In this document: one piece after another, positions 54,150 to 56,176 of the stretch | How positions within the stretch are numbered: position 1 is the first letter of the stretch | How the letters are laid out: every line of letters begins with the position of its first letter | Origin: Escherichia coli | GTDB taxonomy: Bacteria; Pseudomonadota; Gammaproteobacteria; Enterobacterales; Enterobacteriaceae | Reading direction: 5' to 3' (one strand) | Assembly: GCF_046105845.1 (NCBI RefSeq) | Contig: NZ_CP151004.1 | Length of the DNA stretch: 64,000 nucleotides | Translations under genes and position numbers: made by a program | The notes under the pieces: model-generated | What the model saw: only the letters and a program-made list of their open reading frames with translations | Told to the model about the DNA's origin: nothing | The model's database searches: none

Positions 54150-54181
54150 CATTTCCCCCTCATGATGAGGGGGCTTTTTTT
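54150..54181. terminator. Bidirectional intrinsic terminator between convergent yehA and rcnB
   Basis: CCCCCTCAT-g-ATGAGGGGG perfect stem flanked by an A-run and CTTTTTTT. Confidence 0.6.
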
Positions 54182-54518
54182 AGCGATGATAAAAAATCTC
54201 ACCGTCGTAGGCTTTAATGATTTTACCGTCGGTGTCGCTGATCAACACGTACGCGCCACCCATATAGGTCCAGTGCGTCCCGGCATCAGGCGCGGGCAGG
54301 TTACGTAACTGCCACTGCTTAATGTTGTACTCATCGGTGCGGTACATCTCTGGGACGGTATCGCCTGGTTTGAAATGCTTAAAGTCAGCAATGAAACTGC
54401 TTAACTCATACTTAGAAATTCCCGAGGTATTGGTCGAACCCGCGGTGGCTGGTGCGGCCCAGGCGGCACTGGTAACCAGCAAAAGCGCACCCAGCAACAT
54501 CTTATTTTTAATGGTCAT
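54180..54518 (-). CDS. rcnB: Periplasmic nickel/cobalt homeostasis protein RcnB (YohN)
   Basis: Start at MTIKNKMLLGALLLVTSAAWA (signal peptide) gives 112 aa. Confidence 0.9.
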   Translation of the reverse strand: MTIKNKMLLGALLLVTSAAWAAPATAGSTNTSGISKYELSSFIADFKHFKPGDTVPEMYRTDEYNIKQWQLRNLPAPDAGTHWTYMGGAYVLISDTDGKIIKAYDGEIFYHR

Positions 54519-54736
54519 AAACTCTCCACTTTGGGGATCTGTAATATCAGTCGCATATCTTTCCTGCCATACAATATAACTGACAAGCGATATTTTGTTA
54601 GTGATCCCATGATTTCGTAAAAAGTGTAAATGAAAGGATGCCCTAAAAGCATCCTTAGCGAGCAGAGAGTCAGCGGAAATAGCTGATTTAAGAATCATCC
54701 TGGGCTGAAGATAACATGCAAACCTAAAGGATTGAG

Positions 54737-55561
54737 TTATCGCATTATGCCCATAAAGCCATGCACACCCATATACACACCAACTAAGCCAATCAACAGA
54801 CTGGAAAAATAGGGGGCGCGTTTAGCGAGAGTGTTAAATCCGCTCCAGCGTTTTGCGACCTGCTGAACGCTGATTGCTGCGCCAACGCCTACGGTGACAA
54901 GCGTTAACGCCAGGCCAATGCTGAAACTGACGACCAGTGTTGCGCCCAGTGTCAGGGCTTTCAACTGAATGCAAATCAACAGCACGGTAATTGCTGCCGG
55001 GCAGGGGATAAGACCACCTGTTAAGCCAAATAGCAAAATTTGCCAGTTGGTGACCTCTCTACCATCAAAGCGTCGTTTAATGTCATTGGCATGGGCTCGT
55101 GCATGGGCATCCTGATACTCGCCATGTTCGTGATGGTGATGATGTCCATGGTCGTGGTGATCTTCGTGATCATGGTGATGATGCTCATGATCATGCCCGT
55201 GCATATTCTCCAGCCAGTTGCGTTCGCCGCGCCAGGTACGCCAGAACATCCAGAACGCGGTGCCAATAATGATCACCGCGGAAATCAACTGGAGCCACGG
55301 TTCCGCCGACTGCGTAGTAAAGCGTTTGCTGATCACCATCCCGCCAAAGGCAATCAACCAGACCACCGCGGTATGCGAAATGGTTGCTGCCAGTCCGAGC
55401 ATCACCGCCTGTTTAATGGTGCCTTTGATGGCGATGATAAACGCCGCCATCATCGTTTTTGAGTGCCCTGGTTCCAGGCCATGAAGCGCACCAAGTAAGA
55501 TGGCGCTGGGGATGAAGAACCAGGCGTTTCCTTGCTGAAGAAGAGTGGTAAATTCGGTCAT
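54737..55561 (-). CDS. rcnA: Nickel/cobalt efflux protein RcnA
   Basis: 274-aa membrane ORF with an extended His-rich loop (HGHDHEHHHHDHEDHHDHGHHHHHEHGE). Confidence 0.94.
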   Translation of the reverse strand: MTEFTTLLQQGNAWFFIPSAILLGALHGLEPGHSKTMMAAFIIAIKGTIKQAVMLGLAATISHTAVVWLIAFGGMVISKRFTTQSAEPWLQLISAVIIIGTAFWMFWRTWRGERNWLENMHGHDHEHHHHDHEDHHDHGHHHHHEHGEYQDAHARAHANDIKRRFDGREVTNWQILLFGLTGGLIPCPAAITVLLICIQLKALTLGATLVVSFSIGLALTLVTVGVGAAISVQQVAKRWSGFNTLAKRAPYFSSLLIGLVGVYMGVHGFMGIMR

Positions 55562-55598
55562 GATAATAATTCTTAGTATTAATTCGGCAATCTGATTC

Positions 55599-55613
55599 TA
55601 CTCCCCCCCAGTA
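55599..55613. promoter_or_regulatory. RcnR operator site 1
   Basis: TACT-C7-AGTA, the complement-strand form of the published TACT-G6-N-AGTA motif, in the rcnA-rcnR divergent intergenic region. Confidence 0.7.
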
Positions 55614-55618
55614 CCTGA

Positions 55619-55633
55619 TACTACCCCCCAGTA
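55619..55633. promoter_or_regulatory. RcnR operator site 2
   Basis: TACT-A-C6-AGTA, 20 bp from site 1. Confidence 0.7.
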
Positions 55634-55681
55634 GATTAATAGTGCTATGATTTTTCATGTTCTTGTTAACCAGGTGTTGCC

Positions 55682-55954
55682 ATGTCTCATACAATCCGTG
55701 ATAAACAGAAACTGAAAGCGCGTGCCAGTAAGATTCAGGGCCAGGTCGTGGCGCTCAAGAAAATGCTCGACGAGCCGCACGAATGCGCTGCAGTTTTACA
55801 ACAGATTGCTGCTATCCGTGGCGCGGTAAACGGTCTGATGCGGGAAGTGATTAAAGGTCATCTGACGGAACACATCGTTCACCAGGGGGATGAGCTAAAA
55901 CGTGAAGAAGATCTGGATGTCGTTCTGAAGGTGCTGGATTCATATATCAAATAA
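55682..55954 (+). CDS. rcnR: Ni/Co-responsive transcriptional repressor RcnR (CsoR/RcnR family)
   Basis: 90-aa [24 protein letters not shown]...; divergent from rcnA. Confidence 0.93.
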
Positions 55955-56043: not shown

Positions 56044-56176
56044 AACCAAACGACTCGGGGTGCCCTTCTGCGTGAAGGCTGAGAAATACCCGTATCACCT
56101 GATCTGGATAATGCCAGCGTAGGGAAGTCACGGACCACCAGGTCATTGCTTCTTCACGTTATGGCAGGAGCAAACT
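56044..56176 (+). ncRNA. TPP (THI-box) riboswitch in the thiM leader
   Basis: Leader contains GGGGTGCCCTTCTGCGTGAAGGCTGAGAAATACCCGTATCACCTGATCTGGATAATGCCAGCGTAGGGAA; Shine-Dalgarno GGAG at 56167-56170 lies in the expression platform. Confidence 0.85.

Follow-up and report, generated by a model that had tools for sequence, protein, structure and literature searches.

The locus described here lies in a window of 64,000 nucleotides of Escherichia coli DNA (contig NZ_CP151004.1 of assembly GCF_046105845.1) and is centred on the divergent genes of a nickel and cobalt efflux protein and its repressor. The gene order in K-12 is yehA, rcnB, rcnA, rcnR, a TPP riboswitch, thiM and thiD, and the window has the same order. 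The three rcn genes are placed as follows.

54180-54518, minus strand: rcnB, accessory periplasmic protein of 112 amino acids, downstream of rcnA and identical to the RcnB of K-12.
54737-55561, minus strand: rcnA, Ni/Co efflux protein of 274 amino acids (NCBIfam NF007454), with a His-rich loop encoded at 55124-55201.
55682-55954, plus strand: rcnR, repressor of 90 amino acids which belongs to the CsoR/RcnR family and responds to Ni(II)/Co(II) (NCBIfam NF011613 equivalog).

Of 5426 complete E. coli genomes, 5361 contain the region, and RefSeq names rcnA and rcnR at this place. RcnR scores 197.3 bits against the NF011613 equivalog model (cut-off 138), is identical in sequence to the K-12 repressor and has His3, Cys35, His60 and His64 in place; this H-C-H-H (W-X-Y-Z) ligand set is the signature of the Ni/Co-sensing RcnR (PMC11672702). 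RcnA scores 557 bits against NF007454, the model for its nickel/cobalt efflux subfamily (cut-off 195). Its His-rich core comprises the 26 residues 121-146, with 17 histidines, four aspartates and three glutamates, while in its extended form the stretch has 37 residues and 19 histidines, so that the length of about 30 residues given for this loop in an earlier note on the same DNA is a fair description. Two of the differences from K-12, Y125H and H134D, fall within the core, which still has 17 histidines in 26 residues; the composition of the loop is thus polymorphic among strains.

For RcnB the NCBIfam profile search gave no match, though RefSeq carries the name. The mechanical open reading frame for rcnB is 172 codons long (54180-54698, minus strand), and the annotated gene starts at 54518 and encodes 112 amino acids. 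The two genes are mentioned in the literature as a transcription unit rcnAB (PMC4124493). On the other side of rcnR, upstream of thiM-thiD and as in the K-12 annotation, the TPP riboswitch occupies 56046-56142 on the plus strand (Rfam RF00059, 71.2 bits, gathering score 54.3).

The gap between rcnA and rcnR extends from 55562 to 55681 and measures 120 bp, in agreement with the length given earlier. It holds two 15-bp motifs in direct orientation:

55599-55613, plus strand: RcnR site 1, rcnA-proximal; on the rcnA-sense strand TACT-G6-G-AGTA; identical to K-12.
55614-55618, no strand: spacer CCTGA of 5 bp, which sets the 20-bp start-to-start register of the sites.
55619-55633, plus strand: RcnR site 2, rcnR-proximal; on the rcnA-sense strand TACT-G6-T-AGTA; identical to K-12.

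By direct reading and by pattern search, site 1 is TACT-C7-AGTA (TACTCCCCCCCAGTA) and site 2 is TACT-A-C6-AGTA (TACTACCCCCCAGTA) on the plus strand, with the coordinates and the description that the earlier note had given for them; the C tracts occupy 55603-55609 and 55624-55629. Their reverse complements, TACTGGGGGGGAGTA and TACTGGGGGGTAGTA, both read TACT-G6-N-AGTA, which is the published RcnR motif, reported to be present in two copies between rcnA and rcnR (PMC7055735, PMC3902906); the match to this motif that had been proposed thus holds twice. Two statements on geometry need rewording. The distance of 20 bp is correct when measured from start to start, and is not the gap between the sites, which are separated by the 5 bp CCTGA. 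Likewise the C tracts do differ by one nucleotide, C7 against C6, but the two sites have the same length of 15 bp and the difference consists of one base, C versus A, at the seventh core position of the motif.

A search of the 64-kb window with TACTNCCCCCCAGTA on both strands, tolerating up to two mismatches, returned site 1 and site 2 as the sole matches, each with zero mismatches. At that threshold 0.18 matches are expected by chance, and two out of 100 shuffled sequences reached two matches. The cognate repressor with its H-C-H-H ligand set is encoded directly beside the two sites.

The comparison with the K-12 intergenic sequence that had been suggested as a check was performed with K-12 J53 as reference, and the earlier reading passed it. 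Site 1, site 2 and the spacer are base-for-base identical in the alignment, and the sole difference in the 120 bp is an A to G change at 55659, which lies 26 bp past site 2 and outside the sites. In rcnA there is one synonymous change near the start of the gene (55547), and the protein carries four substitutions (A83T, S100G, Y125H and H134D). K-12 is reportedly also the strain background in which the footprinting of RcnR in E. coli was done. The studies of the rcnA-rcnR operator to which later papers refer are those of Iwig and Chivers 2009 (J Mol Biol 393:514) and of Blaha et al. 2011 (Biochimie 93:434). In the citing papers the species is given as E. coli, without strain.

RcnR was used as query against one genome per species, which yielded eighty rcnR loci with 258 kb of sequence in total, covering Escherichia, Citrobacter, Salmonella, Raoultella, Kosakonia, Rahnella, Hafnia, Erwinia, Edwardsiella, Morganella and a Vibrio. 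A divergent rcnA is next to rcnR in 78 of them. The 15-bp motif was matched 133 times, in every case no more than 130 nt upstream of an rcnR gene and with the strand orientation seen in the window, and the 258 kb contain no match outside the rcnR upstream regions. The 15-5-15 geometry is exact in 64 loci, each with different flanking sequence. With the sites of these 64 loci as anchor, a profile shows an information content near 2 bits at each position of both 15-mers, against about zero in most of the intergenic DNA.

The tandem pairs, 67 in number, allow each part of the arrangement to be looked at separately. The spacer has 5 bp in 66 of them and comes in 25 different sequences; such near-constant length combined with free sequence indicates that it is the phasing of the sites that is constrained. 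On the side of rcnA, 65 of the 67 pairs have a C7 core. In the rcnR-proximal site the first core base, as written in TACT-A-C6-AGTA, is A in all 67, and the core is exactly A-C6 in 58. By these counts the N of the consensus is not free but specific for each site, and is conserved across species; in the window the bases concerned are 55603 and 55623.

Some species depart from the tandem arrangement. A single C7 site is present in Erwinia psidii, Edwardsiella anguillarum and one Enterobacter sp., and Morganella has one intact RcnR site and a second, degenerate one. The single-site species show that the tandem pair is not strictly needed for an rcn operator.

Escherichia whittamii Sa2BVA5 has a deletion of about 150 bp which apparently takes out the entire intergenic region together with the 5' end of rcnA (corresponding to about 55520-55681 of the window). 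The ends of the deletion lie in a short direct repeat, CCAGGCGTTxCC in rcnA and CCAGGTGTTGCC just before the ATG of rcnR. It could be real or an artefact of assembly.

Taken together, the exact motif, its position and the footprint argue that the two 15-bp motifs are almost certainly the tandem RcnR operator shared by the divergent rcnA(-rcnB) and rcnR, and this analysis turned up no evidence against such a reading. Three other explanations for the C-rich sites were considered.

The first regards the C tracts as a switch which is phase variable by slipped-strand mispairing, with C6, C7 and C8 toggling the control of rcnA and rcnR by RcnR. Variants of the expected kind are indeed recorded: site 1 has C8 in about 93 complete E. 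coli genomes and C6 in up to about 118, examples of such strains being E70, ML775 and O121:H19 assemblies, and in strain NC22 the C tracts of both sites are extended by one base. Among the listed C6 and C8 records, however, many have accessions and strain names of one and the same STEC assembly series (CP027xxx, CP028xxx), for which reason these tract variants are probably errors of homopolymer consensus in assembly and not true alleles. In addition, about 4386 out of 5345 E. coli genomes match the 91-bp operator segment of K-12 exactly, and the C7 and A-C6 lengths are fixed over more than 60 species, which is the opposite of what a hypervariable tract would show. On the grounds of this tract conservation and of the clustering of the variants by assembly batch, phase variation was rejected, and we regard it as very improbable.

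Variation in the number of sites is of a different kind. A third RcnR site is present in six complete E. coli genomes, which cannot come from homopolymer error. In five of them, of different serotypes (N47, at 2444-2583 of its locus L006, N39, EC26 and one strain each of O157:H7 and O111:H8), a 20-bp unit with site 2 is duplicated in tandem, while in WW2 it is the unit of site 1 that is duplicated, over 23 bp; the two kinds of duplication imply at least two independent events.

The second explanation is that the sites serve mainly another regulator, such as the paralogue FrmR or some other metal regulator. In its favour, the FrmR model gives RcnR a score of 76.5 bits, and FrmR too uses tandem type-1 sites (PMC5146963). 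The score is well under the FrmR cut-off of 133, though, the FrmR motif differs in having ATAC/GTAT repeats around a 9-bp GC tract (PMC5146963), and in all loci examined the motif described here accompanies rcnR and has no further occurrence. There is hardly any likelihood left for a regulator other than RcnR as the main user of the sites.

The third explanation, by which the motifs would be chance low-complexity runs of C or a local 20-bp duplication without regulatory role, can point to the near-perfect direct repetition of 15 bp in the two sites and to local duplication of the unit, as the third copy in six E. coli genomes demonstrates, but it is effectively refuted by the conservation analysis, in which the sites are near-invariant and their spacing fixed in 64 distinct loci of many genera, in contrast to the diverged DNA around them; the exact match to a published motif and the 0.18 matches expected even at the relaxed threshold speak against it as well, and its probability is negligible. 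A G-quadruplex or i-motif was dismissed, two G tracts being too few.

Outside the sites three short blocks are conserved, and they supply candidates for promoter and translation signals of the two genes:

55643-55651, plus strand: candidate extended -10 of the rcnR promoter, TGcTATGAT (TGCTATGAT), in a conserved block.
55595-55600, minus strand: candidate -10 of rcnA, TAGAAT, a 5/6 match to TATAAT which overlaps the edge of site 1.
55570-55575, minus strand: putative ribosome-binding site of rcnA, TAAGAA, 8 nt before the ATG.

Downstream of site 2 the 64-locus profile shows only one conserved block, a.TG.TA...T, 9-20 nt beyond the site. In the window it reads TGCTATGAT, which we infer to be the extended -10 of rcnR. 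On the side of rcnA the tetranucleotide ATTC immediately 5' of site 1 on the plus strand is kept across genera, and on the rcnA strand reads as part of AGTAGAAT. Its conservation may reflect the -10 of rcnA (TAGAAT); alternatively it could reflect contacts of RcnR with bases flanking the site. Near the start of rcnA the sequence TTCTTA(G/A) is present in seven of the eight loci of other genera which show the stretch (the exception being locus L057), these loci coming from Citrobacter, Salmonella, Enterobacter, Erwinia and Edwardsiella, and TAAGAA is probably the ribosome-binding site of rcnA. CTAAGAAT was tried as -10 of rcnA and rejected in favour of the ribosome-binding site, given its distance to the ATG. 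Both proposed -10 placements fit the published position of the two sites between two transcription starts.

A consensus promoter scan of the region returned two weak candidates, a number not significant with 0.8 expected, and the proposed -10 elements are not among them. The two candidates of the scan, TTGCCG-16-TATTAT on the minus strand and TTAACC-18-TACAAT on the plus strand, were rejected as promoters, since in both cases the -10 hexamer abuts or lies in a coding region.

In E. coli ETEC4085 an IS5-family transposase element (1616-2612 of its locus L004) is inserted between rcnA and the operator, at TTAG (about 55572-55576 of the window), and parts rcnA from its promoter and operator.

The way in which the operator would work can be taken from published work on RcnR. 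Intracellular Ni(II)/Co(II) is the signal to which RcnR responds in its control of rcnR and rcnAB, and the two sites sit between the transcription starts of these two units (PMC4124493). It is the apo-form of the repressor that binds TACT-G6-N-AGTA (PMC7055735, PMC3902906), with a stoichiometry of 1:1 per site; the protein contacts the TACT/AGTA repeats and selects the G tract for its A-form-like shape (PMC3902906). A single tetramer occupies each site, on one and the same DNA face (PMC5146963), and with cobalt or nickel RcnR leaves the DNA (PMC7105576). For the RcnR of Salmonella affinities are given, without detail on the sites (PMC5709419).

RcnR binding should hold in the strain analysed here because the operator sequence is identical, and the same-face geometry, stoichiometry, release by metal and autoregulation, which are carried over from this literature, should apply as well. 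According to this model, in metal-free conditions one RcnR tetramer would occupy each TACT-G6-N-AGTA site, which it would recognise through the TACT/AGTA inverted repeats together with the A-form-like, unbroken G/C tract. Because of the place of the sites between the two starts, where they would overlap or abut promoter elements, their occupancy would repress the efflux genes rcnA(-rcnB) and rcnR itself. Upon binding of Ni(II) or Co(II) the affinity of RcnR for DNA would drop, the operator would be vacated and both promoters would fire.

The operator of this window is already known, being identical to that of K-12, and is neither novel nor surprising. The RcnR operator has been biochemically characterised since 2009; it is the control switch of nickel and cobalt efflux in E. 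coli, protecting the cell from the toxicity of both metals, and the rcn control switch has been reused in synthetic metal-inducible circuits. What is mildly new is the cross-genus asymmetry of C7 and A-C6, the constant 5-bp length of the spacer and the rare alleles with one or three sites. The footprint, by which site length, spacing and asymmetry are all under constraint, is of modest value in itself, and the natural one-site and three-site alleles are usable for relating operator copy number to the metal response.

The asymmetry invites a further suggestion. In more than 60 species C7 is always on the side of rcnA and A-C6 on the side of rcnR, with the 5-bp spacer in between. It is conceivable, although we consider it rather doubtful, that the two sites are non-equivalent and that the conserved asymmetry and the number of sites tune the function of the operator. 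If this were true, the sites could differ in their affinity for RcnR, so that rcnA and rcnR would be derepressed at different metal levels, or the T of site 2 on the rcnA strand could double as part of the -35 of rcnA. The natural one-site species and the three-site alleles of E. coli could in that case have a shifted set-point for nickel and cobalt.

Comparison with known systems places the locus without difficulty. With the tandem rcnA-rcnR operator of K-12 it has in common both sites of 15 bp, the spacer of 5 bp, the gap of 120 bp, the order and orientation of the genes and the RcnR protein sequence; the base at 55659, the synonymous change at 55547 and the four substitutions in RcnA are different and leave the operator untouched. 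The sites have the features of the tandem type 1 site, with an unbroken tract of six or seven G/C bases and TACT/AGTA inverted repeats 7 bp apart (PMC3902906), and do not differ from it; the E. coli RcnR operator is the founding example of this type. The sites of E. coli FrmR in Pfrm are likewise tandem GC-tract sites with short AT-rich inverted repeats, bound by a close paralogue of RcnR (PMC5146963), but their repeats are ATAC/GTAT, their GC-rich tracts measure 9 bp, and induction is by formaldehyde, not by nickel or cobalt. The type 2 operators of CsoR, for example that of Streptomyces lividans, share with the sites of this window the G-tract pseudopalindromes, the GTA dyads and a repressor of the same fold (PMC3902906).
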